From: an uncultured virus (IMG/VR IMGVR_UViG_2821904334_000002)
Taxonomy: Duplodnaviria; Heunggongvirae; Uroviricota; Caudoviricetes
IMG/VR virus record: IMGVR_UViG_2821904334_000002
DNA: 64,000 nt
Direction: 5' to 3' (one strand)
The position numbers and the translations under genes are program-made. This document shows, piece by piece, positions 300 to 63,859 of the stretch. Every line of letters starts with the position of its first letter. Within the stretch, counting starts at the first letter, position 1. The notes under the pieces were generated by a model that was not told the DNA's origin, did no database searches, and saw nothing but the letters and a program-made list of their open reading frames with translations.

Positions 300-502
300 G
301 TGTACTTTTATTTAGGGGTATATTCGAAACCCAGAATGTAGTGAAACGAACGAAACTAGAGGTTTCATCGTCTGGTCTTGCCACTAGCAACGGTTACATA
401 CAAGTAAGAGTTTTATTTCTAATATAAAGGCAAAATTTAACGAACTATTTTAGATAGATATTCAAACAGCACATAACAATTAAAACGAAGAGGTGAACCC
501 AA

Positions 503-1294
503 ATGACAGAATTCTTGGATAGGCATTTTGCGAAAGAATTTAAGCAACTAATGGCTGAGTTACGAAGTGAGACAAGATTTAGTATAAAACAACTCCCCTC
601 ACCATTCAGCAAACCAGCTTTACTAAACAAAGTATACATTAAAGGGATTGAAGACGAGAAATATAGTAAACTAAACGGTAAGTATGCACCAATACGTAAG
701 GGTAACTCAATTGTCCGTAATATCTATCATAATAACGGTCAAAAGAAAGCGGAGACTACATACACCGCAAAGGATGGTAATGCATTAATCGTTACAAATG
801 AAAACTTACAATTACCATACCGATATCGTCCTACAGACAAAGCATTAGAGTATGTAGACTACAGAGAAACAAATGGTGTTCGTACTTTCATTTATTCAAT
901 ACCGAAGAAGTATCTATATAAAACAAAGCAAACCGCATTGGTATTAGCACAGAACACAAAAAGAAGTCATTACGGCGGGTTAAAACTTATGTTAACAAAC
1001 GGTCATTCCATTTACCTATACATTGTATCATTGGGTAACGTGCGTGAGCGAGAAGGTAACGTTCCATTAATCACAAAGACAGGCAATGATTATAGCGTAG
1101 AGTTACAGAAACTACAAGAGTACTGGTTACAAAGGGGTATTATCTTCCCTAAAAACGTACTGGAACTGGAAATACCATATGGAGATTCAACAAACTTAGG
1201 TTATAAAGTATTAGAAGCGGTAGAAGACTATGTAGGCATAGACGAGTTTAGTATTACAGAACGAGCAGAAATGAAAGCGAGACAGGCTTACTAA
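503..1294 (+). CDS. hypothetical protein (263 aa)
   Basis: long ORF with GAGGTG RBS; no family recognised. Confidence 0.8.
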   Translation: MTEFLDRHFAKEFKQLMAELRSETRFSIKQLPSPFSKPALLNKVYIKGIEDEKYSKLNGKYAPIRKGNSIVRNIYHNNGQKKAETTYTAKDGNALIVTNENLQLPYRYRPTDKALEYVDYRETNGVRTFIYSIPKKYLYKTKQTALVLAQNTKRSHYGGLKLMLTNGHSIYLYIVSLGNVREREGNVPLITKTGNDYSVELQKLQEYWLQRGIIFPKNVLELEIPYGDSTNLGYKVLEAVEDYVGIDEFSITERAEMKARQAY

Positions 1295-1316
1295 TCATTA
1301 TGAACAGATATTACAT

Positions 1317-1345
1317 TTGACAAATACCAAAACTTATGTTATAAT
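1317..1345 (+). promoter_or_regulatory. sigma-A promoter, repeated family
   Basis: TTGACA-17 nt-TATAAT with extended TG; spacer AATACCAAAACTTATGT. Confidence 0.85.
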
Positions 1346-1395
1346 AGATATATAAATGATTGGTGATAAGAATTATTTACGAAAGGAGAAAGGGA

Positions 1396-3243
1396 ATGGA
1401 ATATAATGTTGTGAAACACGGAAATAAAGAAGCATACATCATTAAGAAAGAAACAACATTCAAAATCGTAAAAGAACTACTAGGTACAGACTACCTAAAC
1501 ACCGTTACAACTGAGTTCATTAAGAATAAGTGTGTACACAATCCGAACTTAAATAAAGGGGTATTAGTATCAAACCGTAGGTCTTTAAAGGCAAAATTTG
1601 CAAAAGAGCGTATGATGTCAGATGTTGTTATGAACCGATTTTTAGAGCAAGAGATACCTGAAGAACAGTATAGCTTCTTACAACAATACGTAGGAAACTT
1701 AATACTTCATAATAAGGGTGCAGAGAATATTTTCTTAAACCTCGGTCGAGGGGTAAATGAAGAATATTTCCGTAAGAAAGGTATTAAGTTAGCAAACTTA
1801 AACCAAAATGCAAAGTGGCGTTTAGCCTTCGTAAAAGACATCGTTCATGGTTATTGTTCATTAGGTCATGAGATACGATACGCTTTTACCGCTATAAACG
1901 ATTTTGGAGATAGTTTAGTCTTTGGTAGTACATGTGTTCATGATTTCTTTGAAATAGACGAGCAGTTAGGAGAAAGACTTACGGAATATGTAAATCAAAT
2001 CAGAACACATACAGAAGACTACTATAACGATTATCATTCATACTATGAGATTCATCGTAAACAAGACCAGTTCATGGCACTGTTAATGAAGTTCGTAAAT
2101 AGTTCTACAAATGAGCAAACATTTAATCAGACTGAATTAAACTACATGAGTACATTCATTGGTTATGGTTTACCAATACCAAGACCTTTAGCAGAGCAAG
2201 TAGGAGATAAAATAATGGACTTCTTTGCTAAGGAGTATAAGATGTTAGTAGCATTCGAACCGTATGACATTGTAACCAAACTGATATACCTTTGTGGTTG
2301 TTTCGCATATGGGTGTCATGGAACTACAGTAAATGAGTTAAATACAAACTTCCCAGTAAACTACTTAGGCGATAGAATCATGCCGAAGATGGTAGAACAC
2401 CTACAAGAGAAGTTTGATGCCTTACAAACAGGTACAACCAATAATGATTTTATCCAAGTAATGACACAAAACTTAAATATCAATCAATTTGTCATGCTAT
2501 TAAATAACTTATCTATGATGAAGAAGTTAACAGGGGTATTAGCACAAGATAATGTTTTAACTCTTGAACCAAACCCTACTGAAACGGGTTATAAATTAAC
2601 ATACAAAGAGATTACATTATCAAGACAAAGCCATATAGCGTCAAAAACTCACGCTACTGAAAGTGCAAAACGGATGAACTTACTATTCGGATTACCACTT
2701 GTAGAAACACGAGAAGACGCATTGAAAATTTTCATGAATCAGCAAATCCAACTAAAACTAGATAAGAACGTATTAGCAACGAGAGATTTTGCTTATCTGA
2801 ACATGTTTGAGTACGAAGAAGGGGTATCGGTTTTCTCCACTAAACTCAATGCAGGTGCAGAAAAACTAAAGAATTTCATGCATGAAAACGAAGGAAAAGT
2901 CGTAGCAGAAGATATTGTGCTACAAATCTTAAATAATGACTTTGTAAATAAGGATAAACCAAAAGGTTTAGAATGGTACAATTTAATCATTCAAGAAAAC
3001 CACGTAGCAGAAGCTATGCAAAGTAATAAACCACGCACAGGGGTAGTTAGAAACCGTTCAAACTTCCCTACAGAAGAGTATGAAGAGTTATTAGAAAAAG
3101 CAATCAGACATAGGGACGTAGTTGATAAGAAGAGAAAAGGTTTTGCAGTAGACATACTGAAAACAGTATTAACCTACAAGAAAGTATCACCAAAACAGAA
3201 AAAGTTTATAGATGATTTAGAGAGTGTACTACAAGACGTATAA
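1396..3243 (+). CDS. hypothetical protein with putative Zn-binding motif
   Basis: ORF (track start 1360; ATG 1396 follows an AGGAG/AGGGA RBS); CSLGHEIRY...FGSTC motif. Confidence 0.75.
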   Translation: MEYNVVKHGNKEAYIIKKETTFKIVKELLGTDYLNTVTTEFIKNKCVHNPNLNKGVLVSNRRSLKAKFAKERMMSDVVMNRFLEQEIPEEQYSFLQQYVGNLILHNKGAENIFLNLGRGVNEEYFRKKGIKLANLNQNAKWRLAFVKDIVHGYCSLGHEIRYAFTAINDFGDSLVFGSTCVHDFFEIDEQLGERLTEYVNQIRTHTEDYYNDYHSYYEIHRKQDQFMALLMKFVNSSTNEQTFNQTELNYMSTFIGYGLPIPRPLAEQVGDKIMDFFAKEYKMLVAFEPYDIVTKLIYLCGCFAYGCHGTTVNELNTNFPVNYLGDRIMPKMVEHLQEKFDALQTGTTNNDFIQVMTQNLNINQFVMLLNNLSMMKKLTGVLAQDNVLTLEPNPTETGYKLTYKEITLSRQSHIASKTHATESAKRMNLLFGLPLVETREDALKIFMNQQIQLKLDKNVLATRDFAYLNMFEYEEGVSVFSTKLNAGAEKLKNFMHENEGKVVAEDIVLQILNNDFVNKDKPKGLEWYNLIIQENHVAEAMQSNKPRTGVVRNRSNFPTEEYEELLEKAIRHRDVVDKKRKGFAVDILKTVLTYKKVSPKQKKFIDDLESVLQDV

Positions 3244-3270
3244 TAACAAGCGAGTTTATAGAGAATTAGG

Positions 3271-3300
3271 TAGGAACTGGATGTTATTTTCCAGTTCCTA
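3271..3300. terminator. inverted repeat abutting the next promoter (terminator or operator)
   Basis: TAGGAACTGGA...TCCAGTTCCTA. Confidence 0.55.
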
Positions 3301-3329
3301 TTGACATTTTGGGAAACTTATGTTATAAT
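3301..3329 (+). promoter_or_regulatory. sigma-A promoter, repeated family
   Basis: TTGACA-17-TATAAT with AAACTTATG spacer and extended -10. Confidence 0.85.
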
Positions 3330-3376
3330 ATTAATATAAATAAGCAGGAGAAATAAATATAAAGAGGTCTATTTAT

Positions 3377-3733
3377 ATGATTTATTTACGTAAACTAGGG
3401 CAAGGAGAGACAACTCTCATAATGAAAGGTAAAGCATTTTACTTTGATATGCTGAACGAGTTTAAACGGGAAGTACCTGTAAAATTTATAAACTTAGAAC
3501 AGGTACAAATAATTTCATTTATTACACAAGGTAACCAAGTAGAAGTGGCATATACAGATAAAGAGGGTAATGTAACAAAGAGATTGATAATAAACATGAG
3601 TGAGTTATTACCTACAATTGATAGACTAAAGAAAGAACCGAGATATATTGTTACATTAACGAAAACGGTAAGGATTGGGGAAGTAGTGAGTAAACAATAC
3701 ATTGTGGTATACAAGACTTCAAGTAAACAATAG
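3377..3733 (+). CDS. hypothetical protein (118 aa)
   Basis: ORF with AGAGGT RBS downstream of a promoter. Confidence 0.75.
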   Translation: MIYLRKLGQGETTLIMKGKAFYFDMLNEFKREVPVKFINLEQVQIISFITQGNQVEVAYTDKEGNVTKRLIINMSELLPTIDRLKKEPRYIVTLTKTVRIGEVVSKQYIVVYKTSSKQ

Positions 3734-3764
3734 AAAGTAGGTGAAGGAGGTGGAGTTAAAAGCA

Positions 3765-6579: not shown

Positions 6580-6591
6580 ATACATAGAAAC

Positions 6592-6626
6592 GAGACTGTA
6601 GGTGAAAACTTACAGTCTTTTTCTTT
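6592..6626 (+). terminator. intrinsic terminator
   Basis: AGACTGTAG...TTACAGTCT followed by a T-run. Confidence 0.75.
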
Positions 6627-6936
6627 GTTTACATGGGTAGAACTGAGTTAATTTTTCAGCTATCTAAATCAAATTTTACGTAACTTCATATGTTGATGAT
6701 TGAGCATTGAAGCGATTTTAACTTAGTAAAATAAATACGTCATTTTTCGTAATATACCTTCATTATCTATATCAAACTAGTAGTCTCATCCTCATTTCTT
6801 AATTTACAATCCCACCTAACTACAATGATTTTATAACCCTTCCTAATCTATGAAAACAAATAGGTATAAACTATCAGATTACCCAAAATCACATGAAATA
6901 AATAACAAGACTACAAACTTTTTGAAATTTTGGTAG

Positions 6937-7401: not shown

Positions 7402-7441
7402 TTCAAACATCCATTGAATCTAGTAAGAGAGGGGTATTCAA

Positions 7442-8458
7442 ATGACAACGGAAGTAAGAGAAGTAAACGAAGAACTTTTATCGAAAAACCCTAAAGATTT
7501 AAAAGGTAAAGAACGAGATAATTGGTTGACCGAAAAGCAAAAAGACATTATGAATAAAGTAACAAATCATAAAACTTCTAAAGAAGACATCATAGAAATG
7601 TTAACCTTTATGTCTAAGTTCCACAATTATTCTTACAAGAACTCTATGTTAATAGAAGCACAGTGGGAAGGGGCAATGGCAGTAGCAAGTTCACAACGTT
7701 GGAAGAAGCTAGGGTATTACATTCGTAAAGGTGAAACTGGTAAAATACTCATTTGGATTCGAGTAAAGTATAAACGTATTAAACTAGATGAAGGTTGGAT
7801 TCCTTGGAGTAAAGCACCGAAACAAGTACAACAAGATGCTTTAGCAGGGAAATATGAGTGGACGGAGTCAGTAAGTTACAAGTCAGGTTATGTGTATGAT
7901 ATTTCACAAACGACAGCTGAGATTGAAGACTACCCTAAACTAATGCCAAACCGCCATTACAACTTTGAAGAAAATGAAGTAGATTATCAGAACTTACTGG
8001 GTGGTATTGACTTACTAGCAAACAATCTAGGTTACGAAATGAACTGGGACGAACGTGGTGTGTTACAGAGTGCAAAAGGTGGTTGTATCTATGATACAAA
8101 ACAAATCCTTTTAAACAAACGAAATACACATACGGAAAACGTAAGTACTTCTATCCATGAACTAGCACATGCCTATATGCACCCAAAATCTGAATTAGAT
8201 AGAGGTGAAAAAGAGTTACAAGCTGAACTGGTAGCTACGGTAGTTTCAAGTGTATTTGGTATAGACACAAAAGAAAAAGCAGTAGGTTACATTGCAACTT
8301 GGATGAATTCAGCAAATAAACGATTAAAAGAAGATGGAAAAGAAATGCAATTAGAAGACTTACTACAAGAAGTACAAAGAACCGTTAAGAAGTTCGTAAG
8401 AATTATTAATGGTGAAATGGATTATCAAGGTGGAAACGATAAGGCAATGGATAACTAA
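7442..8458 (+). CDS. ardC: ArdC-like antirestriction protein (ssDNA-binding N domain plus zincin-like metallopeptidase domain)
   Basis: FHNYSYKNSMLI...RWKKLGYYIRKGE...VYDISQT N-terminal signature; HELAH motif followed by ELQAEL. Confidence 0.8.
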   Translation: MTTEVREVNEELLSKNPKDLKGKERDNWLTEKQKDIMNKVTNHKTSKEDIIEMLTFMSKFHNYSYKNSMLIEAQWEGAMAVASSQRWKKLGYYIRKGETGKILIWIRVKYKRIKLDEGWIPWSKAPKQVQQDALAGKYEWTESVSYKSGYVYDISQTTAEIEDYPKLMPNRHYNFEENEVDYQNLLGGIDLLANNLGYEMNWDERGVLQSAKGGCIYDTKQILLNKRNTHTENVSTSIHELAHAYMHPKSELDRGEKELQAELVATVVSSVFGIDTKEKAVGYIATWMNSANKRLKEDGKEMQLEDLLQEVQRTVKKFVRIINGEMDYQGGNDKAMDN

Positions 8459-12852: not shown

Positions 12853-12878
12853 TCTACATTCAGAAAGGGGTATATGTC

Positions 12879-13160
12879 ATGGAAACAAGAGGGAAAGAGT
12901 TAACCGTTGCAGACGTAAAAGCCTTAGCAAAGAATCAGGAGAAGTGGGAAGGTAAACTACGTTTAAACCATACATGGGAAAAGTATGCTGAGAAAGAACT
13001 GATTGAAACAACTGTATCTATTGCACCTGTTAAAACGTTTACTGGAACACAATACATCATGTTTAATTTTCAAGGAGATAAAATGAGAGAATTAGACTGG
13101 TTTATCAGAGATAATAAGGAACTAGGTATTGAGGTTACATTTTATGAGTTAAAACGATAA
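12879..13160 (+). CDS. hypothetical protein, WxG paralog family A
   Basis: LTVADVKALAKNQEKWEGKL. Confidence 0.8.
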   Translation: METRGKELTVADVKALAKNQEKWEGKLRLNHTWEKYAEKELIETTVSIAPVKTFTGTQYIMFNFQGDKMRELDWFIRDNKELGIEVTFYELKR

Positions 13161-13173
13161 AGGGGTAGATTGT

Positions 13174-13440
13174 ATGTCAGGTCAAGTAGTTACGCAACAA
13201 GACGTGAAGAACTATGCAAGAACACATGGTAAATGGTTTGGAACACTCATTTCACAACCTATGTATAATGGGCAAGCGATGGGTGTTCCAACCCTAGCTA
13301 GGGCTTCTGTAGTACGTATCAACACAATTAGAGGGTTTGGATATGTAGTAGTAGGTACAGACAAGGAAATTATCGGTGAGTTGGGTTGGTTTGTATCACA
13401 AAACGAAAAAGAAGGTCATAAGATTTCTTTCACATCTTAG
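13174..13440 (+). CDS. hypothetical protein, WxG paralog family A
   Basis: VTQQDVKNYARTHGKWFGTL. Confidence 0.8.
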   Translation: MSGQVVTQQDVKNYARTHGKWFGTLISQPMYNGQAMGVPTLARASVVRINTIRGFGYVVVGTDKEIIGELGWFVSQNEKEGHKISFTS

Positions 13441-15462: not shown

Positions 15463-15476
15463 TAGAGGGGTAGACG

Positions 15477-16130
15477 ATGAACTATAAAGTATTAATGGAT
15501 GACAAAAATGGTCGTGGATTATACTCTGAAACAGTAGAAGCTTATAGTGAAGACCAAGTGAAGATGGTAGTAGCAGAATTATTACCGGGAAAACTAGTAA
15601 CCTTTAAAGAGATTAAAGATAAAGGAGACATAGTATATTACAAAGGGTTCGAATTGCATATAAATGAGACAAAAGATGTGTACGGAAAACCTAGAGGTGA
15701 CTACTTCACAATCATAAAAGCAGACACAGTAGAAGGAGCAATAGACTATATAAATAAAAAGTATGGTGAAGTTATTAGTATTCATCGAAATGTACTATTT
15801 GTAGATAAAGATACAAGACTAGAGCAACTACATGATGGACAAGAATATTACATTCAAGTCAAAACAGAATATGAAACTGATGTATTGGAAATTTTTAAAG
15901 AGGGAAATCGAATTTATACAAAAGCAATTGGTGGAGAGTCAGTTAGACCCTTTGAACATTCATTTTTAGTAGAAGAAACTATAAAGGAATTTAATAAACG
16001 TGGTTTCTTTAAAGAATTTAGCTTAAATACACTTACTTTAAAGCACTTAGAAGAATTAAACTTTGAGGTATATAATATGGTTAGTGGATTATCAGAAAGA
16101 CCCGAAGAATTTGATGGAATCGTATTCTAA
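15477..16130 (+). CDS. modular paralog family B (X-X'-Y)
   Basis: YKVLMDD..RGLYSE..KLVTFK; LEQLHDGQEYYI..KEGNRI. Confidence 0.8.
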   Translation: MNYKVLMDDKNGRGLYSETVEAYSEDQVKMVVAELLPGKLVTFKEIKDKGDIVYYKGFELHINETKDVYGKPRGDYFTIIKADTVEGAIDYINKKYGEVISIHRNVLFVDKDTRLEQLHDGQEYYIQVKTEYETDVLEIFKEGNRIYTKAIGGESVRPFEHSFLVEETIKEFNKRGFFKEFSLNTLTLKHLEELNFEVYNMVSGLSERPEEFDGIVF

Positions 16131-16138
16131 AGGGTAGT

Positions 16139-32588: not shown

Positions 32589-33881
32589 ATGTCAAACGAC
32601 AAGTTAGAGAGTAACGAGAAATTAAATATTACTCGTAGATATAGACCAAAGTCGATGGATGAGTATAAAGGAAACGAAGACTTAAAGAAAGCACTTTTCA
32701 GTTGGTTAAGAAATATTAACAAACCACAAGCGATTCTTTTAAGAGGTGCTACAGGTGGGGGTAAAACTTCAATGGCTCGTATCGTAGCCAAGGAGTACCT
32801 ATGTGAAGACCGTGATGAAGAAAAAGGAGCATGTGGTGTATGTTATAACTGTAGAATGATGGAAGACTATATTGAAACAGGTAGTACAGATGGTTTAATG
32901 GGGGTACATGAAATTAATGCTTCTAAAGACTCTGGTATTTCCGCTATTAACTCTGTATTAGAAGATGCTCAATATACAAGTCCGACTGGGGAATGGAAGA
33001 TATACATTCTCGATGAGTGTCACCGAATCAGTATTCCAGCTCAAAACAGCTTATTAAAACTAGTAGAAGAACCACCTGAGAACGTGTTATTCATGTTCTG
33101 TACAACTGACCCTGAGAAAATGTTAGATACGTTATTAAACCGTTGTAACATTAAATTAGACGTTAAGAAACCTTCTGAGGAACAGCTTACGCAAATCTTA
33201 TTAGACATTTGTGTGAAAGAAGGTATCTCGTATGACAGAAAAGGTCTTTCCTTAATCGTAGACAGGTCTGAACTTGTTATTAGACAGGCTCTTATGGATT
33301 TAGAAAACGTAATTGTACAAACTGAAAGTGCAGAACATCGTTTCGTATCAAAAATATTCGATAAGCATCCAAACAGTTTGTATTTCGACTTTTATCGTGC
33401 TTTACTCAAACATGACACGCATCAATTTGTTTCCATTATCCACAAGGTTAAAACGAAGATGACGGTGCAAGAATTTGTTAAAAATTTAACTAACTTCACT
33501 AAAAGAGGGATATACATTTGGAATGGTGTGAATCTTGAGGGAATTACGGAGAACGAACTACGAAACATGAAGGAATTGTTTAAACAGTTCAAGCTAGAAG
33601 AACTTGCATTGATGATTGAATTCCTAACTACGGTATCAGACGGTGATGTAGAAGTTAATTTACTTCTTCTAGGCTTCAAGGGGTTAGAGAAACCTAAGAA
33701 CGTACAAGCACAAGAAGAGGTAGTAATTGAAGAGAACAAGAACGATATCGAACAGGAAAACAAAGTAATATCAGGTAATAAAAAAGCCATTACAGAGGAA
33801 CGAAAACTAAAGAGTATAGAAAGCGTGAAGAATGCGGTAGAAACTACAACCGCAGATGAAGTATTGAATTTGTTTGATTGA
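32589..33881 (+). CDS. dnaX: DNA polymerase III gamma/tau-like clamp-loader ATPase
   Basis: RRYRPKS; Walker A GATGGGKT; C..CGVCYNC Zn site; ILDECH; NSLLKLVEEPP; NRC. Confidence 0.9.
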   Translation: MSNDKLESNEKLNITRRYRPKSMDEYKGNEDLKKALFSWLRNINKPQAILLRGATGGGKTSMARIVAKEYLCEDRDEEKGACGVCYNCRMMEDYIETGSTDGLMGVHEINASKDSGISAINSVLEDAQYTSPTGEWKIYILDECHRISIPAQNSLLKLVEEPPENVLFMFCTTDPEKMLDTLLNRCNIKLDVKKPSEEQLTQILLDICVKEGISYDRKGLSLIVDRSELVIRQALMDLENVIVQTESAEHRFVSKIFDKHPNSLYFDFYRALLKHDTHQFVSIIHKVKTKMTVQEFVKNLTNFTKRGIYIWNGVNLEGITENELRNMKELFKQFKLEELALMIEFLTTVSDGDVEVNLLLLGFKGLEKPKNVQAQEEVVIEENKNDIEQENKVISGNKKAITEERKLKSIESVKNAVETTTADEVLNLFD

Positions 33882-55408: not shown

Positions 55409-55421
55409 GGAGGGGTAGACA

Positions 55422-55739: not shown

Positions 55740-55789
55740 ACTGAGATAGAGAGTAATAGTTTCAAAGTCTAAGAAAGGAGGGGTATTGT

Positions 55790-58111
55790 ATGAGTTTCGA
55801 TTCACGAAACTTTGTCTCTGACGATGACTTAGCAAAGGAACGTCAAGATAGGCAAGACAGACAAAACCCACCAAGCGTAGAACATGGTCAAGGTGGAGAC
55901 GCCTTTGCTGATTTAAATATAGATGATTTATTCAGCACTCCTTCTCCTTCTTCACCAACTGATAATAACAATTCGTTTAACTCTTTTGGTGATGCACCTC
56001 CAATGGGGCAACCCTTAGGTGGTGGAAATGACCCTTTCTTGAACCCAATTGGAGGGATACCTCCGATGGGAGGTATGAATCAACCACCTACTCCATTCGG
56101 TCAACAACCTAAGACTGATGAAGAGAAAATAATGGATGCAGGAAAGAAAAGTTGGTCATTCATTAAAGACTTAGGTAGTGGGTTTCATGATTTAAAGTCA
56201 ACACCTACAAACTGGTCTATGACTGGTAGGAACTTAGTTAAAATGTCAGCAATCGCTTTTGGTTTATCCTTTGCAACCATGATGATATTCAAGAAAGACG
56301 TAATGGACTACATGATGGGTAGCGGTTTTACCGCAATAGCAGGGGTATTATTACTGTCTTTCAATAACGATAAAGCACGATTGATAAAAGGTACAGACGG
56401 AGAAGAGGAACAGCCCTTTGATATTAATAAAATAGAGGGAGACCCTTTACCACAAGATGATATCTTTGCGAGTGCATTTGCAACTGAGCCTAACATGTTA
56501 GTAAACTTAGATAAACCACCATTGGAAGATGAACAACCTTTTGCAACCTTTGAAGATGAGGAAGATGAAGGAGAAGAAGATGATGATGGATTTGATGATG
56601 GTTGGGATGAGTTTGATGAGGAAGAAGACGAGGAATTCGATGAGGAAGACGAAGAGATAACAGAATTTGTTACAGTAGATGAAGCACCTTCTGATATAGC
56701 AACGGTATTAACCGAAGTAGACCAAGTACCCGCAGGTATGTATACAAGACATTTCTTATATGAAAACTATAAGAGAGCCTTAACAAGCATTACACCATCA
56801 TACAGTGAAACAATCTTCTTAGACGAAGATGAAGATGATGAATGGGATGCATATAGTAGACTAATTCGAGAAGTACAACAGCAAATGGATTTAGAATCAG
56901 GGGTAGACGATTACGAAAGTGATTTATCTGAAATCCTGTCTGTAGAGAAACGTCTATTAACGGTTTATGTAGAAGCAACAAGACCAAAGAAACTTAAAAA
57001 TAGTAAGATTGATGAGTTCAACCGAGAACTATCAAATATTGTTTCAAGGGTAAAAGGAAGACTGGTAGAGGGAAGATACTCTCAAACAATAGCAGTTGGT
57101 AACACAATTTACATTACAATTTTTACGGGTGAAACAGCAAGTGTATCTGTTAAAGACGCTATTATAAAAGAGCAAGATTTCTTCTTAAATACAGACAACC
57201 GTATTCCAGTTGTAATGGGCTTTAACGAATTAGGAGACACAATTAAAATTGATTTATACGATGTGGAATCTATCCTAACAGCAGGTATGCCAAGGGGTGG
57301 TAAAACATTCTCTGTTAAAACAGTAATGTCTCAAATGGTTCAATTTTGTAGTCCATCAGAAGTTACTTTCTACTTTGCAGACGTAAAAGGTAAAGTATCT
57401 GACTGGTATCAGTTCAGAACACCTCATGTTAGAAGGTTCGAAAGTGACCCACAACAAATCATAACCATGTTAACTCACTTAACAGACGTAGAAGGACCGA
57501 GACGTGAGAAGATAATGGCAGAAGTAGGGGTAACAAACTTAAAAGACTATAATCAAGTTCCACACGATATTGAACTACCTATGATTTATGTTGTTATAGA
57601 TGAAATGGCAACTCTAATGCAGAAGTTAACAGACAAGGATAAAAAGTTATTCCACGCAAGAATGGTCGATTTAGTAACGAAAATGCCAGGGTTTGGACTT
57701 AGATTATGGGGTATTCCTCACTTAGTTAAGAACGATATCATCCCTAAAACAGTATCAGACTTAATACCTTGTAAGATATCTGTTAAAGGGGATGAGAGTC
57801 ACGTTGAAGCTACAACTGGTGCAAAACCAAGTAAGTTTAAGTTTAAGTTATCTCATGTAGGAGATTGTGCGGTAAACATGCCAGCTATCTCTAGTGACGT
57901 ATTCTTTATGCACTCATTTATCTTAGCTAAAAACGGTACTGGGGTAACTCGTGTATTAGATTATCAATCGAAGTTATGGGAGAAACTAGAACCTGATTCT
58001 GTAAAAGGTTCACTATCCTATCAACTAGACAATACAAATAGACAAAAAGTAGTATTAGATAAGTTAGACTTACCTAGTGAGCCTGTATTCGGTAAGGATG
58101 GGATGTACTAG
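55790..58111 (+). CDS. FtsK/SpoIIIE-family DNA translocase (two TMs, acidic linker, motor domain)
   Basis: IPVVMG..DL..SILTAGMPRGGKT Walker A; YFADVKG; IYVVIDEMATL Walker B; GDC; no evident C-terminal gamma domain. Confidence 0.88.
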   Translation: MSFDSRNFVSDDDLAKERQDRQDRQNPPSVEHGQGGDAFADLNIDDLFSTPSPSSPTDNNNSFNSFGDAPPMGQPLGGGNDPFLNPIGGIPPMGGMNQPPTPFGQQPKTDEEKIMDAGKKSWSFIKDLGSGFHDLKSTPTNWSMTGRNLVKMSAIAFGLSFATMMIFKKDVMDYMMGSGFTAIAGVLLLSFNNDKARLIKGTDGEEEQPFDINKIEGDPLPQDDIFASAFATEPNMLVNLDKPPLEDEQPFATFEDEEDEGEEDDDGFDDGWDEFDEEEDEEFDEEDEEITEFVTVDEAPSDIATVLTEVDQVPAGMYTRHFLYENYKRALTSITPSYSETIFLDEDEDDEWDAYSRLIREVQQQMDLESGVDDYESDLSEILSVEKRLLTVYVEATRPKKLKNSKIDEFNRELSNIVSRVKGRLVEGRYSQTIAVGNTIYITIFTGETASVSVKDAIIKEQDFFLNTDNRIPVVMGFNELGDTIKIDLYDVESILTAGMPRGGKTFSVKTVMSQMVQFCSPSEVTFYFADVKGKVSDWYQFRTPHVRRFESDPQQIITMLTHLTDVEGPRREKIMAEVGVTNLKDYNQVPHDIELPMIYVVIDEMATLMQKLTDKDKKLFHARMVDLVTKMPGFGLRLWGIPHLVKNDIIPKTVSDLIPCKISVKGDESHVEATTGAKPSKFKFKLSHVGDCAVNMPAISSDVFFMHSFILAKNGTGVTRVLDYQSKLWEKLEPDSVKGSLSYQLDNTNRQKVVLDKLDLPSEPVFGKDGMY

Positions 58112-58143
58112 GGGTAGTCAGTGATTTTAGACCTTAAAAGAAG

Positions 58144-59421
58144 GTGTTTTATTTGCGAGTAATGTTAGAAAGTATATCCAATGAAGACTTATATTTTGCC
58201 TTACAAAAGTATGGTGAGAAGTTAGCAGACAATAAAAAAGATTATAGTCAAGTAAAATCGGAAGAGTTTGAGAGGTTACAGCTTCTTAGACCTCTTCCAG
58301 TATTAGATGAACGGAGTCTGATATCCGAAGAGGTAGAAGAAGATTATGAAATACAATCAAAAGCTACAGACTCACTAGAGTATATTACATTAGAATCTAT
58401 TCTACCGCATGAAATTACAAGTCATATTGAGAATGTCTTTGAAAAGCTAAACAGTAGTGTAAACTTAGATTTAGTTTCAGAAGATGAACCAATTGATTAT
58501 ACAAAAGAAGAACCTCCAGTTGTCATTATAGACGAAGAAGAGGAAGAGGAAATCATAGATGATGAAATTATAGACGATGAAGTCATTGAAGATGAAATAG
58601 AAGATGAAGAATTAGAAGATGAGGAAGAGGAAGAACTACTAGAAGATGACGATGAGGAAGAATTGTTAGACGATGACGAGGAAGAAGACCTTGAAGACGA
58701 AGAAGACGACTTTGAGGATGAGGACGAAGAAGAGGAATTCTTAGAAGACGAAGAGGAAGATGACGAGATTATAGAGGAAGAGGAAGAAGACGATTTCGAG
58801 GATGAAGAAGACCTTGAAGACGAAGAAGATTTAGAAGAGGAAGACGAGGAAGAGGAAGAAGAATTCCACGAACCTGAGCCTGAACCTATAATCGAAGAAG
58901 TTAAACTAGTAAAACCAATCATTACACCTCCAATCGTAGAAAAGAAAGAACCTATTCAATCTTATGAACCAGTGTTTAAAAAGGATGCACCAGTCGTTAA
59001 AAAGACTGAACCTGAATTTAAGAAGGATACACCATATGTATCACCTTCAAAACCTGAGTTGAAGAAAGAGGAACCTGTTCAAAGTCAATTTGACATTCCA
59101 AATAATCCAAGACCGAGTCGTAGAGCTAGTTCAAACTCAAGAAGAATGAATAGCATAGGCGGAAGTGAAGAAGACTTCATTAAAAATATAATGAACGGTA
59201 CAAATTCCGAAGTAACTCCACCTTCAACGAATGTCAATCCATCTTCTCCAAAAGTAGAAGAAGTAAAAGTAGAAAACTTACCTCCAGACCCAATTTCGTA
59301 TTTAAGACTTCATCCGAGGTCGAAGGAAAACGAGGTCAAAAAGTTATATCCACCTAAAGTAGTAGATGAGTATATTAATAGCGGTATCATAACGAGGGCT
59401 AGAGGGGTATTATTAATTTAA
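58144..59421 (+). CDS. hyperacidic protein with small C-terminal winged-helix-like domain
   Basis: ~120-aa D/E tract; P-rich linker; C-terminus PISYLRLHPRSKENEVKKLY..VVDEYINSGIITRARGVLLI. Confidence 0.7.
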   Translation: MFYLRVMLESISNEDLYFALQKYGEKLADNKKDYSQVKSEEFERLQLLRPLPVLDERSLISEEVEEDYEIQSKATDSLEYITLESILPHEITSHIENVFEKLNSSVNLDLVSEDEPIDYTKEEPPVVIIDEEEEEEIIDDEIIDDEVIEDEIEDEELEDEEEEELLEDDDEEELLDDDEEEDLEDEEDDFEDEDEEEEFLEDEEEDDEIIEEEEEDDFEDEEDLEDEEDLEEEDEEEEEEFHEPEPEPIIEEVKLVKPIITPPIVEKKEPIQSYEPVFKKDAPVVKKTEPEFKKDTPYVSPSKPELKKEEPVQSQFDIPNNPRPSRRASSNSRRMNSIGGSEEDFIKNIMNGTNSEVTPPSTNVNPSSPKVEEVKVENLPPDPISYLRLHPRSKENEVKKLYPPKVVDEYINSGIITRARGVLLI

Positions 59422-59464
59422 GTCCAGTAAACCTGTAAGAAAGTGATGAAAGAAGGGGTATTTC

Positions 59465-59809
59465 GTGTCAATTAAAGTAACAGCAGTAAGTTTTAGTTTT
59501 GCAAAAGCAATGGATGAAAACAGAAACGGTTCATGTGGGTTCTGTAGGGTTATCTTAAATGGGGTAATCACGATAAACAGGGTAAGGGTTATCAAGAAAG
59601 AATCAGACTATATTGTACAAATGCCTGTAACACCTTGTAGGAATGTAGAAGAAAGTGCAATCAAGTCAGTTGTACAGATAACAGATAGAGAGACGATGTC
59701 GGAAATAGAAACAGCAGTTTTAAAGGAGTATAACGAGATATTAAAGAATACAAAAGTCTATACGAAGAAGCCCTCTAGAAATAACAATCAAACTAAAACA
59801 TACAAGTAG
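59465..59809 (+). CDS. spoVG: SpoVG-family protein
   Basis: IKVTAV..GFCRVILNGVITINRVRVI..IVQMP..IETAVLKEY matches the SpoVG pattern. Confidence 0.75.
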   Translation: MSIKVTAVSFSFAKAMDENRNGSCGFCRVILNGVITINRVRVIKKESDYIVQMPVTPCRNVEESAIKSVVQITDRETMSEIETAVLKEYNEILKNTKVYTKKPSRNNNQTKTYK

Positions 59810-59818
59810 AGAAGTTAA

Positions 59819-59846
59819 AGCCGTTGTGTAGAACAACGGCTATTTT
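59819..59846 (+). terminator. intrinsic terminator
   Basis: AGCCGTTGT...ACAACGGCT followed by ATTTT. Confidence 0.7.
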
Positions 59847-59864
59847 AATTAGGAGGAAGGTTAA

Positions 59865-61451
59865 ATGGCGAAACGAACGGTTAAATACTATAATGATAGA
59901 TTACAAGGCTCAATGAACGAAGCAGACTGTGATAATTTAGAGCATATTTTAAAAATGAAAGAAGTAAACGGAAGCATTGATTCACTAAAACGTACAATCT
60001 ATGCTTTATCAGACGAAGAAGTAGAAAGAATACAACGAGAAAAGAAAGTAGACCCGACTATTTCAAAAGAAAAAGGTACATTAGCTGATAACCAAACACT
60101 AGGAACAGCTTATATGTATTATTCAGGAGACTGTATTATTGGAGATAGCGTAGGTTTAGGTAAAACTGTACAGGTATCAGCCCTTATCAATTTAAAGAGA
60201 AAGCAAAACCATGATAACGGTATCCCTTTCCGCTACCTATTCTTAACAGAGAAAACACTAGTAGAACAGGCAGTTAGAGAGTTAACTCGTTTTACAAGAC
60301 AGTATGTACATGAGTTAACTGGTGAAAAGAAAGAGAACGTAAAATGGCGTGAAGAAATGTGGGATGGTCATAAAGGCGGTATTGTTGCGCCACACTCTTT
60401 ACTGAAACAGCAAGTCTTTCATTCATGGTTAGACGATATGTTAGACGAATATGGGTTAGCAGAAGGAAACTACTATTTCGATTATCTGTTTATAGATGAA
60501 TCGAGTTTATTAGGTAGTACAAACACACAACTGTATAAGTATGCTGAATTACTAAGAAGATATGCAAAACACGTTATCTTAATGAATGCAACACCATTCG
60601 AAAGTAACTTAGAAACATTCTATGGTCAATTAAACTTCTTAGACCCAAACCTTATGCCAGCTAAGACTACATTTAAGAAGATATACTACGTATTAGAGTA
60701 TGGACACGGTCAGAAGAAATGGGGTGTTCATAACGGTAAGTATAAGAATGCACATGTGTTTAGGCATCAAGTGGGGTATTTCTATTTCTATCAAACTCGT
60801 AAACAATTAGGTGCGGAAATGAAGAATACGACCTATGAGATTATAACAAGGGAAATGACAAAGGAACAAACAGAGTTAATGAAGCTAACTGATATGTATG
60901 GGTATGTGTATGATTGTCCTACCTATCTAGACGCTGATATTCCATTTGATGAAGAGAATGTACCGAAGTTAGACATGTTAGAAGAGTTACTAGAAAACAA
61001 AATCAAGGTAGGAGAACAGGTATTAATCTTCTGTCATTACAAAGAATCACAAAGAAGACTACAAGATTGGTTTGAGAACCGTGGTTATGATACTGAAATC
61101 TTAAATGGTGATATTACAAACCGAGAAGAACGAAACAGTATTGTAAATGCATTTAAAGAGAAAGAGTACGAAGTATTAATAACTTCTGTTCAGAAGGGGT
61201 TAAACTTTGGAGACGTACCACATTTAATCTTCTATTCATTCAGTACAAACCCAAACAAAATGATTCAAATGGAAGGTCGTGTTACTCGTTCATTCCATAT
61301 TGAGAATAAAAACTTCTATCTATTAGCGCATGAAGGTAGGGAGTTAAACAAACTGAAGAAAGATGTTAAAAAGACCTTACAATCAAGTCGTGAGTTCTCT
61401 AGTGATGATTTAAGTGCAGTAGTTGAAATGTTACTAAACCTTATGGATTAA
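59865..61451 (+). CDS. SNF2-like SF2 helicase/ATPase
   Basis: IIGDSVGLGKT; FIDESS; MNATP; VLIFC; KGLN; QMEGRVTR. Confidence 0.88.
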   Translation: MAKRTVKYYNDRLQGSMNEADCDNLEHILKMKEVNGSIDSLKRTIYALSDEEVERIQREKKVDPTISKEKGTLADNQTLGTAYMYYSGDCIIGDSVGLGKTVQVSALINLKRKQNHDNGIPFRYLFLTEKTLVEQAVRELTRFTRQYVHELTGEKKENVKWREEMWDGHKGGIVAPHSLLKQQVFHSWLDDMLDEYGLAEGNYYFDYLFIDESSLLGSTNTQLYKYAELLRRYAKHVILMNATPFESNLETFYGQLNFLDPNLMPAKTTFKKIYYVLEYGHGQKKWGVHNGKYKNAHVFRHQVGYFYFYQTRKQLGAEMKNTTYEIITREMTKEQTELMKLTDMYGYVYDCPTYLDADIPFDEENVPKLDMLEELLENKIKVGEQVLIFCHYKESQRRLQDWFENRGYDTEILNGDITNREERNSIVNAFKEKEYEVLITSVQKGLNFGDVPHLIFYSFSTNPNKMIQMEGRVTRSFHIENKNFYLLAHEGRELNKLKKDVKKTLQSSREFSSDDLSAVVEMLLNLMD

Positions 61452-61480
61452 GTCTATAGGGTTTAGTAATGAAACTCTAT

Positions 61481-61509
61481 TTGACAAATTGCTTAACTTA
61501 TGTTATAAT
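61481..61509 (+). promoter_or_regulatory. sigma-A promoter, repeated family
   Basis: TTGACAAATTGCTTAACTTATGTTATAAT. Confidence 0.85.
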
Positions 61510-61541
61510 AAAGATATAAAATTTAAAGGTAGGGGCTAAAA

Positions 61542-62465
61542 GTGGATGAATTAAGAGCAAGTGAAAAATCAAGAGGGGCAAAATACAGTAACGTTGCTAG
61601 GGAAAAGACGGTCACACTGTTATTTAAGGATGAACCTGTAACATTTTTAAGGGAAGAGTATAATAAGAAACTAACAAAATTCATAACGAGATTTGAGAAA
61701 CACGATGGGGTGAAGTCAATTCGTTGTCACTTCTCTAAAACGTCAGAAAGTATATATGTAATGGTACAGTATGAAAACAGAAATGGTTACTTACTGTTTA
61801 CTATTAAAAACCACAAAGATTATCGAGTATCTAGTGTTAAGATATTCACAACTACGAAATTCTTTGATATGGCTCATTTAGGTAGAGCAATTGGAATGTA
61901 CATACAAGAAGCCAAAGAGAGTGAAACTTTATTATTTAACTTCAAGTTTGGAACATTCTTAGGATTAAACACAATTTATAAGTTAGCAGATAAAGGGTAT
62001 CAGATTACAACTCACCCTTTAAACTATGAACTAGATTTATCAAGAGGTATTTACATTTCATCTAAGGTAAACATATCAGATAGTACACTAATTACAGATG
62101 AAGTATTCTTAAAAAGAATTAAGAAACTAGTACATTGCGGATTAATTAGAGCCTACAAAGTAAACGAAGGGGTAGTACGATTCTACATTTCGATTTTCGG
62201 TAGTGAGTTATACAAGCAAAACGCTGAAAAGTATAAACAACAATTATCAGAAACAAACTTAGCAGGTATTGATGGATTACTTGAAAATTCAGTAGGAGTA
62301 TCCAAGAGAACTTCTTCTACCGCAAAGCATCATAAAAAGAAACCACATACAAAGGGTTCTTACAAAGGTAAACAGCCATATAAGAAGAAACCGTATCAAG
62401 GAAAGTCAGATAGTACGCAAAAACCGAGCAAACCTCATTATAAGAAAGATGATAATACAAAATGA
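61542..62465 (+). CDS. hypothetical protein with possible winged-helix and Lys-rich tail
   Basis: IKKLVHCGLI...FYISIFG; KKKP-rich C-terminus. Confidence 0.7.
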   Translation: MDELRASEKSRGAKYSNVAREKTVTLLFKDEPVTFLREEYNKKLTKFITRFEKHDGVKSIRCHFSKTSESIYVMVQYENRNGYLLFTIKNHKDYRVSSVKIFTTTKFFDMAHLGRAIGMYIQEAKESETLLFNFKFGTFLGLNTIYKLADKGYQITTHPLNYELDLSRGIYISSKVNISDSTLITDEVFLKRIKKLVHCGLIRAYKVNEGVVRFYISIFGSELYKQNAEKYKQQLSETNLAGIDGLLENSVGVSKRTSSTAKHHKKKPHTKGSYKGKQPYKKKPYQGKSDSTQKPSKPHYKKDDNTK

Positions 62466-62635
62466 GAGGTTTAGAGATATTATTTCTCGTATTCGTTGGA
62501 ACGGTATTACTATATGTGTTTAGTAATTCATGGGGTTGGAGTCAAGAAGTAAAAAGACTCGTTATATTTGGGATTACGGTTCTTACAATGATAGGAACAG
62601 TAATCGGAGTAGTGATTTACGGAATACACATCTAA
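62462..62635 (+). CDS. small two-TM membrane protein (57 aa, not in ORF track)
   Basis: ATGA overlap with the upstream stop; MRGLEILFLVFVGTVLLYVF...YGIHI*. Confidence 0.55.
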   Translation: MRGLEILFLVFVGTVLLYVFSNSWGWSQEVKRLVIFGITVLTMIGTVIGVVIYGIHI

Positions 62636-62673
62636 GGGTTAAGATGTGGAAACAAAAGAGGTGAGCAAGAGAC

Positions 62674-62835
62674 ATGCCAACAATGTTAATATATGCGTAT
62701 ACATTATCAGTTTTGATTTTCGTATTCATGTTATGGACGAAGATGGAGACTACAAAGTTTAAGAAGGTATTCTTAACAGGGGTAATTGGTGCTTCCTTAT
62801 ATGCATTAAACTATTTCGGTTTATTCTATAGCTAA
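62674..62835 (+). CDS. small two-TM membrane protein (53 aa, not in ORF track)
   Basis: GAGGTGA RBS; MPTMLIYAYTLSVLIFVFMLW...GLFYS*. Confidence 0.6.
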   Translation: MPTMLIYAYTLSVLIFVFMLWTKMETTKFKKVFLTGVIGASLYALNYFGLFYS

Positions 62836-62896
62836 GGGTTAAGTTATAGACGAGTAAACGTAAAAAGAAACTATGGAGAGTATAGGAGTGTTTATC

Positions 62897-63094
62897 ATGA
62901 AAGCAGAATACACAGTACACATTTTAAAACTGGGTTTAGGGTTCATGCTTGCAACATCTATCATAATCGGTTTAGTAAAGAACTTTAGTGTTAGTCCAAT
63001 AGAAGTCATTGCATTATTCGTTTTGATTTTAATTACACCTAAAACAAATTTAGCTTGGAAAGACCTAGTAGCTGTTTGGAATGGTCGAAAATAA
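62897..63094 (+). CDS. small two-TM membrane protein
   Basis: track start 62873; ATG 62897 follows AGGAG. Confidence 0.65.
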   Translation: MKAEYTVHILKLGLGFMLATSIIIGLVKNFSVSPIEVIALFVLILITPKTNLAWKDLVAVWNGRK

Positions 63095-63344
63095 GATGGG
63101 AAAAATGACACCACCACTCGGCATAACAGGGTACAGAAAACCTGTTACAAGAAAGTTAATGAGACAGCTAGTAGAAGAGAACAAATTTCATTTTATTACA
63201 GGTTATTCTCCAATCATATACAAACCGGAGTTAGGGTTATATGTTTGTCATATGGATGAGAGATACGATAATAAAACAGTAGAGGAACTTTGGGAAGTAT
63301 TAAGGGGTAGTAGAGGAGGAAGACAGTTATGCTATCAGGATTAA
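63081..63344 (+). CDS. hypothetical protein (87 aa)
   Basis: ORF overlapping its neighbours in operon fashion. Confidence 0.55.
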   Translation: MVENKMGKMTPPLGITGYRKPVTRKLMRQLVEENKFHFITGYSPIIYKPELGLYVCHMDERYDNKTVEELWEVLRGSRGGRQLCYQD

Positions 63345-63658
63345 AACGGATATTCAAGCCAAACAAACAAGCAATGAAAGAGAAAGATATCATTATAAAC
63401 ATTAAAGTTATGCAAAAAGATAGAAAGAAATTAGAAACTGAAAGAGCATTAAAAATAGATGAAATGTGCGAAGCGGTTAAAGGTATATCAAAAGAAAACA
63501 AAGATGAAGTAAGTACAAAACTAACAAAAGATATTATGGAAATTAACGCACAAATTGACCCGAAAATTGAAGAGTGTAACTTACGTATCCAAGAGCAAAT
63601 GGATAAAGCAAGATATTTAAAACTAGATGTAGGGTACATAGAAGAAATGGTAAGCTAA
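63329..63658 (+). CDS. hypothetical coiled-coil protein (109 aa)
   Basis: GAGGAGG RBS. Confidence 0.7.
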   Translation: MLSGLKRIFKPNKQAMKEKDIIINIKVMQKDRKKLETERALKIDEMCEAVKGISKENKDEVSTKLTKDIMEINAQIDPKIEECNLRIQEQMDKARYLKLDVGYIEEMVS

Positions 63659-63662
63659 CTAG

Positions 63663-63812
63663 ATGGGATTCTTAACAGACTTTATTATTTTATCTACAGT
63701 ACCAAGTGTGGCATTATTACTAACAAAGAAGTTTCCAATGAAACTAAGAATTGTATTAGTTATTAATATGGGTTATTATCGTAGTTTTTATGCTAAACAC
63801 GGAAGCATATAA
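63663..63812 (+). CDS. small hydrophobic protein (49 aa, not in ORF track)
   Basis: ORF immediately after the previous stop; weak RBS. Confidence 0.35.
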   Translation: MGFLTDFIILSTVPSVALLLTKKFPMKLRIVLVINMGYYRSFYAKHGSI

Positions 63813-63859
63813 AGTAGACGGATGTTTAAAAGGTTGTAAATAAGAGAGGGGTAGTTACA

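Follow-up and report, generated by a model that had tools for sequence, protein, structure and literature searches.

The window analysed here is a stretch of 64,000 nucleotides from an uncultured virus record (IMG/VR IMGVR_UViG_2821904334_000002), and the feature under study is the hexamer GGGGTA, which recurs along one of its strands. As DNA, the window is 90-93% identical, over nearly its full length, to the 349.6-kb plasmids of B. thuringiensis, which are identified as pXO16 in reviews (PMC6199540). It corresponds to approximately 63.3-126.1 kb of the pXO16 record NZ_CP039723.1, including the region of an FtsK-like ATPase gene. Of pXO16, the plasmid collection PLSDB contains only ten copies, all nearly identical, and it has no relatives of intermediate divergence; the phage collection gave no near match to the window. 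The window is therefore a new, diverged relative.

All the real-looking open reading frames (ORFs) of at least 100 amino acids in the window are present on the + strand. Its G+C content is 32-37%, and both the GC skew and the AT skew are positive throughout. On pXO16, 455 of the 455 annotated coding sequences (CDS) lie on the GGGGTA-bearing strand, and the reviews also describe a single shared orientation of the CDS, with few homologues (PMC9673590, PMC6199540). A Pfam family could be assigned to 10 of the 53 window proteins scanned, while about four-fifths of them (43/53) have none. The matches include ArdC-N/M78, a C39 peptidase with SH3, a DNA polymerase III delta'-like AAA+ protein, an FtsK/SpoIIIE-domain protein, SpoVG and an SNF2 helicase. 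The coordinates of the features discussed below, together with the words found in related elements, are collected in Table 1.

GGGGTA occurs 118 times on the + strand of the window and not once on the - strand. A manual count in the earlier, sequence-only reading of this DNA had arrived at about 117 copies with no TACCCC, and all twelve of its example positions are in the exact list. Its eyeballed expectation was 10-15 copies. In 100 dinucleotide-preserving shuffles the mean was 14.1 for both strands together (standard deviation 3.9, maximum 26), and 118 was reached by none. The copies are separated by gaps of 543 bp on average (minimum 51, maximum 1567), in agreement with the spacing of roughly 550 bp given there. 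Among all hexamers of the window, the word ranks second in strand skew, after AGAAGA (179 copies on the + strand and 23 on the - strand, written 179/23 here and in what follows). The list of 7-mers is headed by AGGGGTA (78/0) and that of 8-mers by AGGGGTAG (42/0). Of the 118 copies, 78 are preceded by A and 33 by T, and 50 are followed by G and 47 by T. Beyond the six bases themselves, only the immediately adjoining positions carry information, and that weakly (W on the 5' and K on the 3' flank). Neighbours of the word with one mismatch stand at ordinary levels in the window, and on pXO16 nearly all GGGG runs belong to GGGGTA, with 658 copies against 43 for the next GGGGNN word.

Within the ORFs of the window, all three frames are used, as had been claimed; 60 copies are read as GGG-GTA, and 17 and 13 copies fall in the other two frames. 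The three frame examples named earlier are as described. Intergenic copies are present too: 28 of the 118 are non-coding or straddling, and 13 of these 28 end 3-7 nt upstream of a start codon. The Shine-Dalgarno position accounts for 13 of the 118 copies in the window and for about 80 of the 658 on pXO16, the remaining copies being placed elsewhere; the six such copies that had been singled out hold up on reading (Table 1). On pXO16, GGGGTA is found at most 20 nt upstream of 94 of the 450 ORFs, while GGAGG is found there in 81.

The absence of TACCCC, which had been offered as a sign of selection, does not carry that weight. Codon nulls predict only 0.9-1.2 copies of it in the window ORFs, and on pXO16 there are 3 copies against 4.4-4.5 expected. 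What had been called strict polarity reflects enrichment on a single strand of C-poor DNA and not avoidance of TACCCC. The two genes that had been described as the most codon-optimised do lack GGGGTA, but they have no special status in this respect, since 7 of the 37 window ORFs of at least 600 nt are without the word.

The claim of selection at the DNA level, on the other hand, is borne out. The codon-aware nulls, for which our own + strand ORF calls were used, leave the enrichment standing. In the window, 90 copies lie in ORFs, as compared with 13.4 +/- 3.8 when codons are permuted within genes and 24.0 +/- 4.1 when synonymous codons are shuffled and the protein is kept. On pXO16, the 493 copies in ORFs compare with 71 and 115 under the same two nulls, and GGGGTA is the top outlier of the synonymous shuffle (z 43). 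GGG-GTA makes up 318 of the 585 Gly-Val pairs on pXO16 (54%), where 54 pairs are expected. Likewise, GGG-TAY occurs 150 times against 53 expected, and more than half of these follow a G-ending codon, in comparison with 14% in general. Non-coding DNA of the window is denser in the word (3.5 copies per kb) than coding DNA (1.6 copies per kb), and on pXO16 a region of 4.4 kb, in which ORFs do not exceed 69 amino acids, has 8 copies on the + strand and 0 on the - strand. In the alignment of the window with pXO16, which is 92.8% identical, 103 of the 116 aligned copies are conserved (89%), as against 68.3% of all hexamer positions. Each side has 13-14 private copies, mostly opposite one-base neighbours, and the totals over the shared region are 118 and 119. 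Such a pattern points to purifying selection with balanced turnover of the sites. By four independent tests, GGGGTA is selected at the nucleotide level and not through the proteins.

The complete circle of pXO16 shows how the word is laid out. It carries 658 copies on the + strand and 5 on the - strand, about one per 0.53 kb, with 15-26 copies in each 10-kb bin. The GC skew is positive in 35 of 35 bins, and the polarity of GGGGTA does not switch anywhere; the flip that a KOPS-like guide would be expected to show was looked for on the full circle and there is none. The spacing is more even than chance would give. The gaps have a coefficient of variation (CV) of 0.71, while the lowest among 2000 random placements was 0.87, and the longest gap is 2071 bp, when random placements have a mean of 3757 and a minimum of 2365. 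Gaps shorter than 100 bp number 31 against 112 expected. Along the ORFs of pXO16, the copies are uniformly distributed. Even spacing of this kind is what one would expect if a signal has to be available all over the molecule.

A second polar word, CCTGAG, was also observed, with 19/0 in the window and 107/4 on pXO16; composition predicts both its orientations to be about equal, and under synonymous shuffling it has a z of 23 (103 copies against 27).

The host background was compared by means of a co-resident 107-kb plasmid, which shares its host, strain HD1002, with pXO16. The first 100 kb of this plasmid have 13 sense copies of GGGGTA against 11.2 expected and 3 antisense copies against 4.5, and only 8 of its 85 Gly-Val pairs are GGG-GTA. 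The word is thus not enriched on this plasmid. Therefore, it is no general habit of translation, transcription or codon-pair use in the host. Tcp-like transfer genes are present on the co-resident plasmid too, together with an FtsK-domain protein, and yet it is unenriched; therefore, the word is also not a general property of Tcp-type plasmids. A weak control is provided by a metagenome-assembled genome with a 3.4-kb contig of the element, too short to show the motif: on its other contigs, GGGTA is found 60 times on the sense strand against 61.1 expected. No report of the GGGGTA word was found in the searched literature on pXO16, plasmids, B. thuringiensis and primase sites, which included two reviews of pXO16 but not its two primary sequence papers.

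Relatives of the ATPase were found at 73, 53, 50, 47 and ~30-39% identity, on contigs up to 360 kb, and 24 metagenome loci and 21 IMG/VR loci around ATPase-related genes were examined; a scan of viral contigs with the single ATPase query gave no match. In a strict test for the core word GGGTA, an observed/expected ratio of at least 1.7 and a Poisson P below 1e-4 were required. Among the loci of at least 8 kb in which at least 400 ATPase residues are matched, 12 of 21 pass, six are borderline and three (L029, L037 and L039) are unenriched, while only 2 of the 23 loci with shorter ATPase matches pass. Several of the passing loci are near-duplicates of one clade, and the counts are not independent. 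The top polar hexamer in many loci is GGGGTA or a one-base variant of it (Table 1), and in all the loci examined the genes lie on one strand.

The distant relatives are very large metagenome contigs of 100-270 kb (L011-L036, G002, G003, G005) with a GC skew of 0.25-0.44; some are filed as viruses, and two have terminal repeats. Even where the ATPase is no more than 30-39% identical, such giant one-strand elements show a polar and enriched GGGTA core. As in pXO16, no polarity switch of the word is seen in G002 and G003. The core is almost never in the Shine-Dalgarno position in the relatives (0-6 of 50-107 copies per locus), for which reason this use would seem to be a cheap placement peculiar to the pXO16 lineage and not a conserved function. 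Only one clear antisense gene was met with in these elements, at 100140-102674 on the - strand of G003 (the orientation of L035), encoding 845 amino acids with a signal-peptide-like start. Inside it, GGGTA has one copy per strand, the + density being 1 in 2.5 kb; the GC skew drops from ~0.38 to +0.14, and GGTATT is found 4/0 on the + strand of the element. To judge from their sequences, pXO16 and its distant relatives look like an apparently unrecognised family of giant one-directional elements.

Table 1. Features of the window and of pXO16 (NZ_CP039723.1), and polar words in related elements (copies on the + strand/copies on the - strand)
Feature	Location	Strand	Evidence or counts
Array of 118 GGGGTA copies (extended form W-GGGGTA-K)	window 315..63853	+ (sense strand of every gene)	exact count
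GGGGTA in Shine-Dalgarno position	window 7431..7436	+	5 nt before ATG of ORF 7442-8458
GGGGTA in Shine-Dalgarno position	window 12867..12872	+	6 nt before ATG of ORF 12879-13160
GGGGTA in Shine-Dalgarno position	window 13162..13167	+	6 nt before ATG of ORF 13174-13440
GGGGTA in Shine-Dalgarno position	window 15467..15472	+	4 nt before ATG of ORF 15477-16130
GGGGTA in Shine-Dalgarno-like context (AAGGAGGGGTA)	window 55412..55417	+	4 nt before an ATG
GGGGTA in Shine-Dalgarno position	window 55780..55785	+	4 nt before ATG of FtsK-like gene
DNA polymerase III delta'-like AAA+ protein	window 32589..33881	+	PF13177, 2.3e-29; the window's part of the element's own replication gene set
FtsK/TcpA-type motor ATPase, 773 aa; candidate reader in the sequence-only reading	window 55790..58111	+	PF01580 only (Pfam E<=0.01)
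425-aa protein; second candidate reader in the sequence-only reading	window 58144..59421	+	no Pfam family at E<=0.01
CHC2 zinc ribbon, stand-alone, 190 aa	pXO16 150701-151273, outside window		PF01807
Toprim_2 protein, stand-alone, 261 aa	pXO16 279102-279887, outside window		PF13155
DnaB-like helicase	pXO16 141895-143340, outside window		Pfam
Family-A polymerase with 3'-5' exonuclease domain	pXO16 234100-237498, outside window		Pfam
Polar word in relative	L021		GGGGTA 43/0 (4.4 expected)
Polar words in relative	L023		GGGGTA 37/0; GGGGGT 36/0
Polar word in relative	L026		GGGGTA 40/0
Polar word in relative, 47% G+C	L028		GGGGTA 46/0 (8.1 expected)
Polar word in relative	L018		AGGGTA 58/4 (6.0 expected)
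Polar word in relative	L036		AGGGTA 43/2
Polar word in relative	L022		GGGTAT 60/0
Polar words in relative, whole IMG/VR record, 140 kb	G002		GGGTA 660/52 (160 expected); AGGGTA, GGGTAT z 17-18; CV 0.85
Polar word in relative, 225 kb, terminal repeats	G003		GGGTAT 328/12 (102 expected), z 15; CV 0.90, not significant
Polar words in relative, 264.6 kb, record behind L039	G005		no GGGTA excess; GTTTAT 583/83 (103 expected), z 25, CV 0.80; AGCGG 837/98 (313 expected), same strand
Relatives	G004, G006		no outlier word

Taken as a whole, GGGGTA is likely a DNA-level strand signal that is read by the replication or transfer machinery of the element itself. As to which part of that machinery, the genes outside the window are of interest. 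pXO16 encodes a CHC2 zinc ribbon and a Toprim_2 protein, each as a stand-alone protein, along with a DnaB-like helicase and a family-A polymerase (Table 1). In the window's own element, a zinc-ribbon copy 95% identical to that of pXO16 is present; it lies on a contig of 359,548 bp, equal in length to the contig with the window's ATPase. When the zinc-ribbon profile was compared with the PDB, it matched the zinc-binding domains of DnaG (1d0q, 3e-10; 2au3, 9e-9), and a three-sequence Toprim profile matched the DnaG catalytic cores 2au3 (9e-13), 5vaz, 1eqn, 1dd9, 3b39 and 5guj; as a single query, the Toprim protein gave no match in the PDB. Together, the two proteins make up a DnaG-type primase that is split into a reader and a catalyst.

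Co-occurrence at the level of whole elements could be followed in six of them, pXO16 and five IMG/VR records. Both the zinc ribbon and the Toprim_2 protein are present in pXO16, G002 and G003, and all three have words of the GGGTA type. G005 has only a divergent zinc ribbon, and its word is GTTTAT. Neither of the two proteins is found in G004 and G006, which have no outlier word, and no Prim-Pol family was found in these motif-less elements. Genes for DnaB-like proteins occur in all six elements, and PolA occurs in the complete ones.

Some further observations were made on these replication genes and their surroundings. The set in pXO16 resembles a T7-style replisome in separate pieces, and further annotations on the record are a ligase, GyrA/GyrB-like genes and a dUTPase. 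After the zinc-ribbon gene stands an ORF of 287-315 amino acids with no Pfam family (pXO16 151319-152194; L056:109-1056, - strand; L057:437-1300, - strand), which is 27-36% identical across pXO16, G002 and G003. Its invariant D, E and D-x-x-D positions look RuvC/RNase-H-like by eye. In G005, the zinc-ribbon gene is followed by a gene for a D12-class adenine methyltransferase. Two stretches of pXO16, 279888-284324 (4.4 kb, directly after the Toprim gene) and 336688-338376 (1.7 kb), have no listed CDS and no + strand ORF longer than 69 amino acids; they are candidate origin or regulatory regions, or else RNA genes omitted from the plasmid table.

A primase site had been named among the alternatives in the sequence-only reading, and it has become the best-supported explanation: the element does encode a split DnaG-type primase, and a start at the word itself is predicted. 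We put forward, tentatively, that GGGGTA is the preferred recognition and start site of this enzyme. The reader would then be machinery of the element and not of the host, and the primase would consist of the stand-alone zinc ribbon as the reader and the stand-alone Toprim protein as the catalytic part, acting with the DnaB-like helicase and the family-A polymerase. The + strand would be the one that becomes single-stranded, serving as the lagging-strand template if replication runs with transcription, and conjugation would probably deliver that strand to the recipient as well. With 5'-GGGGTA-3' as the site, the 3' A would be left uncopied (cryptic); primer synthesis would begin opposite T and continue along the G tract, and the product would read pppACCCC. 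In A+T-rich DNA, a primase site of about six bases would arise by chance only every 5-6 kb; selection, on this proposal, would therefore have raised the density to about one per 0.5 kb and evened out the spacing. The copies would have been placed where they are cheapest, that is, as GGG-GTA for Gly-Val, in non-coding DNA and in Shine-Dalgarno positions.

Known primases offer both likenesses and differences. In Firmicutes, B. anthracis among them, DnaG begins its primers at the central base of d(CTA) or d(TTA) and leaves the 3' base cryptic, and the zinc-binding domain is known to set the start trinucleotide and can act in trans (PMC2978363). The T7 primase uses d(GTC), and the change His33Ala shifts it to d(GTA)/d(GTG) (PMC2978363). 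The xTA form fits both of the element words, as GGGGTA ends in GTA and GTTTAT contains TTA, and the element encodes DnaG-type zinc-ribbon and catalytic proteins. The primer made by the T7 enzyme on GGGTC resembles pppACCCC. With T7 gp4 (5'-GTC-3'; GGGTC/TGGTC/GTGTC), the word also has in common that it is a short single-strand word with a 3' base predicted to stay uncopied and a 5' G tract. The primase of the element, for which GGGGTA is the predicted site, differs from the known ones in being split into two proteins. Further, we know of no primase site that is enriched genome-wide.

Several other points weigh against the primase. The sites of the T7 enzyme are neither polar nor enriched on T7 (GGGTC 39/55, TGGTC 79/62, GTGTC 43/42), and among 46 other phage loci of at least 12 kb with a DnaG-type zinc ribbon, none has GGGTA enrichment or a comparable outlier word. 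The six elements are nested by relatedness, and other backbone genes, such as the FtsK-like ATPase and proteins of unknown function, would correlate with the word equally well. With all genes on the + strand, a DNA-level and a transcript-level signal are inseparable, and the lone antisense gene of G003 holds just its one copy per strand. The direction of replication would follow from the GC skew: G exceeds C on the + strand in all bins, and the genes run in a single direction, which fits a lagging-strand template, but coding bias also produces skew. Inside that antisense gene the skew stays at +0.14. Beside its third zinc ligand, the zinc ribbon has the same I-F-H-C as the CTA/TTA-type enzyme of G. 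stearothermophilus (1d0q), and no sequence feature predicts a preference for a G tract. In G003, moreover, the enrichment is only about 2-fold by our count, and the spacing is not significantly even.

The 773-residue ATPase was the reader first proposed. By fold, its best matches in the PDB are the FtsK motors 6t8b, which is bound to double-stranded DNA (TM 0.78), and 2ius (range TM 0.72-0.78), plus TcpA of pCW3, and it is a genuine FtsK/TcpA-type motor. The gamma domain of FtsK (PF09397) was not detected in it at Pfam E<=0.01; by precomputed Pfam, the domain is absent from 19 of 19 members of the ATPase family and present in the true FtsK matches. A profile-profile alignment to true FtsK with hhalign covers the motor only (381-714) and ends with it, and only 2-3 helices follow the motor. 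The neighbouring 425-residue protein, the other candidate, includes an acidic, repetitive stretch rich in Asp/Glu (window 58540-58800), where the contigs of several runs break or vary by small in-frame gains or losses.

It had been supposed that GGGGTA is a KOPS-, SRS- or TRS-like guide, by which this motor, as the coupling ATPase of the transfer apparatus, is loaded or oriented. There are points of likeness. KOPS (GGGNAGGG), SRS (GAGAAGGG) and the KOPS of L. lactis (GAAGAAG) are short, polar, G-rich words, skewed and over-represented on one strand (PMC3384302). The element has an FtsK-family motor whose fold is closest to that of FtsK on double-stranded DNA; every motif-bearing element carries the ATPase, but the elements were found through it; and, according to a review, neither a relaxase nor an oriT has been identified for pXO16 (PMC9673590). 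The reading is nevertheless weak and, unless the motor reads DNA in a new way, improbable, because the gamma domain, by which the known guides are read (PMC3384302), went undetected in an ATPase with so few helices past its motor; because the known guides change strand at ori and dif, whereas GGGGTA never switches on the circle; because its density is 4-24 times that of the known guides, which occur once per 12.6, 12.7 and 2.1 kb (PMC3384302); because the ATPase is present without the motif in G004, G006, L029, L037 and L039; and because pXO16 is reported to transfer its DNA as a single strand, through a system with a distant likeness to that of pCW3 (PMC6199540). The skew of GGGGTA (0.99-1.0) also exceeds that of the guides (0.79-0.91), and the Tcp-type conjugative plasmid of the same host, despite an FtsK-domain protein of its own, is unenriched. 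TraB of Streptomyces is an FtsK-family conjugation ATPase of a Gram-positive plasmid with short repeated words. TRS repeats are clustered in one small locus (clt), where a C-terminal winged helix reads them in the transfer of double-stranded DNA. GGGGTA, in contrast, is spread evenly over 350 kb with no gap above 2071 bp, and the transfer is, as said, reported to be single-stranded (PMC6199540).

The word might instead act on transcripts or in transcription, since it is always on the sense strand of all genes. GGGGUA in RNA, or GGGGTA on the non-template strand of the transcription bubble, would be bound by a factor of the element. This could be an RNA-binding protein, or a processivity or antitermination factor that needs renewed recruitment along very long co-directional operons; in the pXO16 lineage, the word could also be a Shine-Dalgarno variant that pairs with the 3' end of 16S ribosomal RNA, in keeping with its lead over GGAGG upstream of ORFs. 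GGGGTAG is one base off the core of the ops element of E. coli, and RNA-library contigs of 10-12 kb span the window region in a ~94%-like relative (share 0.19), though these contigs show neither strand nor ends. We regard this explanation as unlikely: no NusG-like NGN domain (PF02357) was found on pXO16 or in five relatives, the relatives scarcely use the Shine-Dalgarno position, the copies are spread evenly along ORFs and not in operon leaders, and the co-resident plasmid, with no enrichment on its sense strand, speaks against a host factor of general use. Internal Shine-Dalgarno-like words are, besides, generally avoided in genes and not enriched. A Chi-like site is less probable again. Such a site would attenuate a helicase-nuclease, either AddAB of the host or an unrecognised enzyme of the element, gaining access through broken forks or rolling-circle tails, and it would protect the giant plasmid and promote its repair. 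Like the Chi sites of RecBCD/AddAB, GGGGTA is polar, G-rich and over-represented on the G-rich strand at a density like that of short Chi words, and its coverage-type spacing would suit a protective signal. The excess of AGCGG in G005 (Table 1), the Chi word of B. subtilis, suggests that such elements can accumulate Chi-type words; but AGCGG is unenriched on pXO16 (83/51), and G005 has GTTTAT as an outlier beside it, so that the special word of the family there is not Chi. Chi words differ between genera, while the GGGTA core is kept in elements from evidently different hosts, one of them at 47% G+C, and is not common to the co-resident plasmid of the same host. A RecB/AddB-type PD-(D/E)XK domain (PF12705) was found in none of five records (pXO16, G002, G003, G004, G005). 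Rather unlikely, but the least so of these alternatives, is a strand-specific nick site for an HNH, GIY-YIG or RuvC-like nuclease of the element, offering many entry points for strand-displacement replication or for oriT-independent transfer of single-stranded DNA, or some other signal read by a protein of an unknown family, for instance in self-recognition or compaction. Some phages carry site-specific nicks in one strand only, and with all copies on one strand any nick would expose the same strand. Immediately behind the zinc-ribbon gene, pXO16, G002 and G003 all keep the RuvC-like ORF, and the many window proteins without a Pfam family leave room for such a reader. According to the reviews, no relaxase or oriT is known for pXO16, which mobilises plasmids without mob and oriT (PMC9673590, PMC6199540). 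Against nicking, there is no link between any nuclease and the word, nicks at intervals of 0.5 kb would break the strand into pieces, and recircularisation after transfer from arbitrary starts is left unexplained. The EcoP15I sites of T7 are likewise asymmetric hexamers in a single orientation on a one-way genome, with CTGCTG 36/0 on T7 (L122). Their one orientation is explained by escape from type III restriction and by codon usage, with no enrichment needed. GGGGTA differs from them in being enriched 8-11x, in that its reverse word is not avoided beyond expectation, and in the conservation and even spacing of its sites.

Elsewhere in the window, the ORF at 7442-8458 on the + strand encodes a protein of 338 amino acids with an ArdC N-terminal (single-stranded-DNA-binding antirestriction) domain and an M78/IrrE-type peptidase domain, a combination known from proteins that accompany DNA during transfer.

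GGGGTA thus probably tells the machinery by which the element copies or transfers its DNA in which direction to work. Long studied and highly efficient in conjugation, pXO16 belongs to the israelensis biopesticide strain of B. thuringiensis, and its replication origin, oriT and relaxase are still unknown according to the reviews (PMC9673590, PMC6199540). The 658 selected copies on one strand provide a direct handle on the strand that is processed and on its direction. If the primase is indeed the reader, the template preference of one enzyme would have reshaped the choice of codons across a replicon, on which 54% of the Gly-Val pairs are one codon pair. More broadly, it is conceivable, if somewhat speculative, that giant (140-360 kb) one-directional plasmid- or phage-like elements of Firmicutes have had their whole sequence shaped by an enzyme of their own. 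A split primase with an unusually long specificity of 5-7 bases would force a start site every few hundred bases on the strand that is made single, and the site would have co-evolved as GGGGTA, AGGGTAT, GGGGGTA and, distantly, GTTTAT. Such a 'primase code', if true, would be the first to extend genome-wide, and it would reveal the strand and the direction of pXO16 replication and transfer. The core word also marks metagenome elements of 100-270 kb, with their genes on one strand, that were previously unconnected. Being common to them, it could be used as a signature by which such elements are recognised and their orientation is read.

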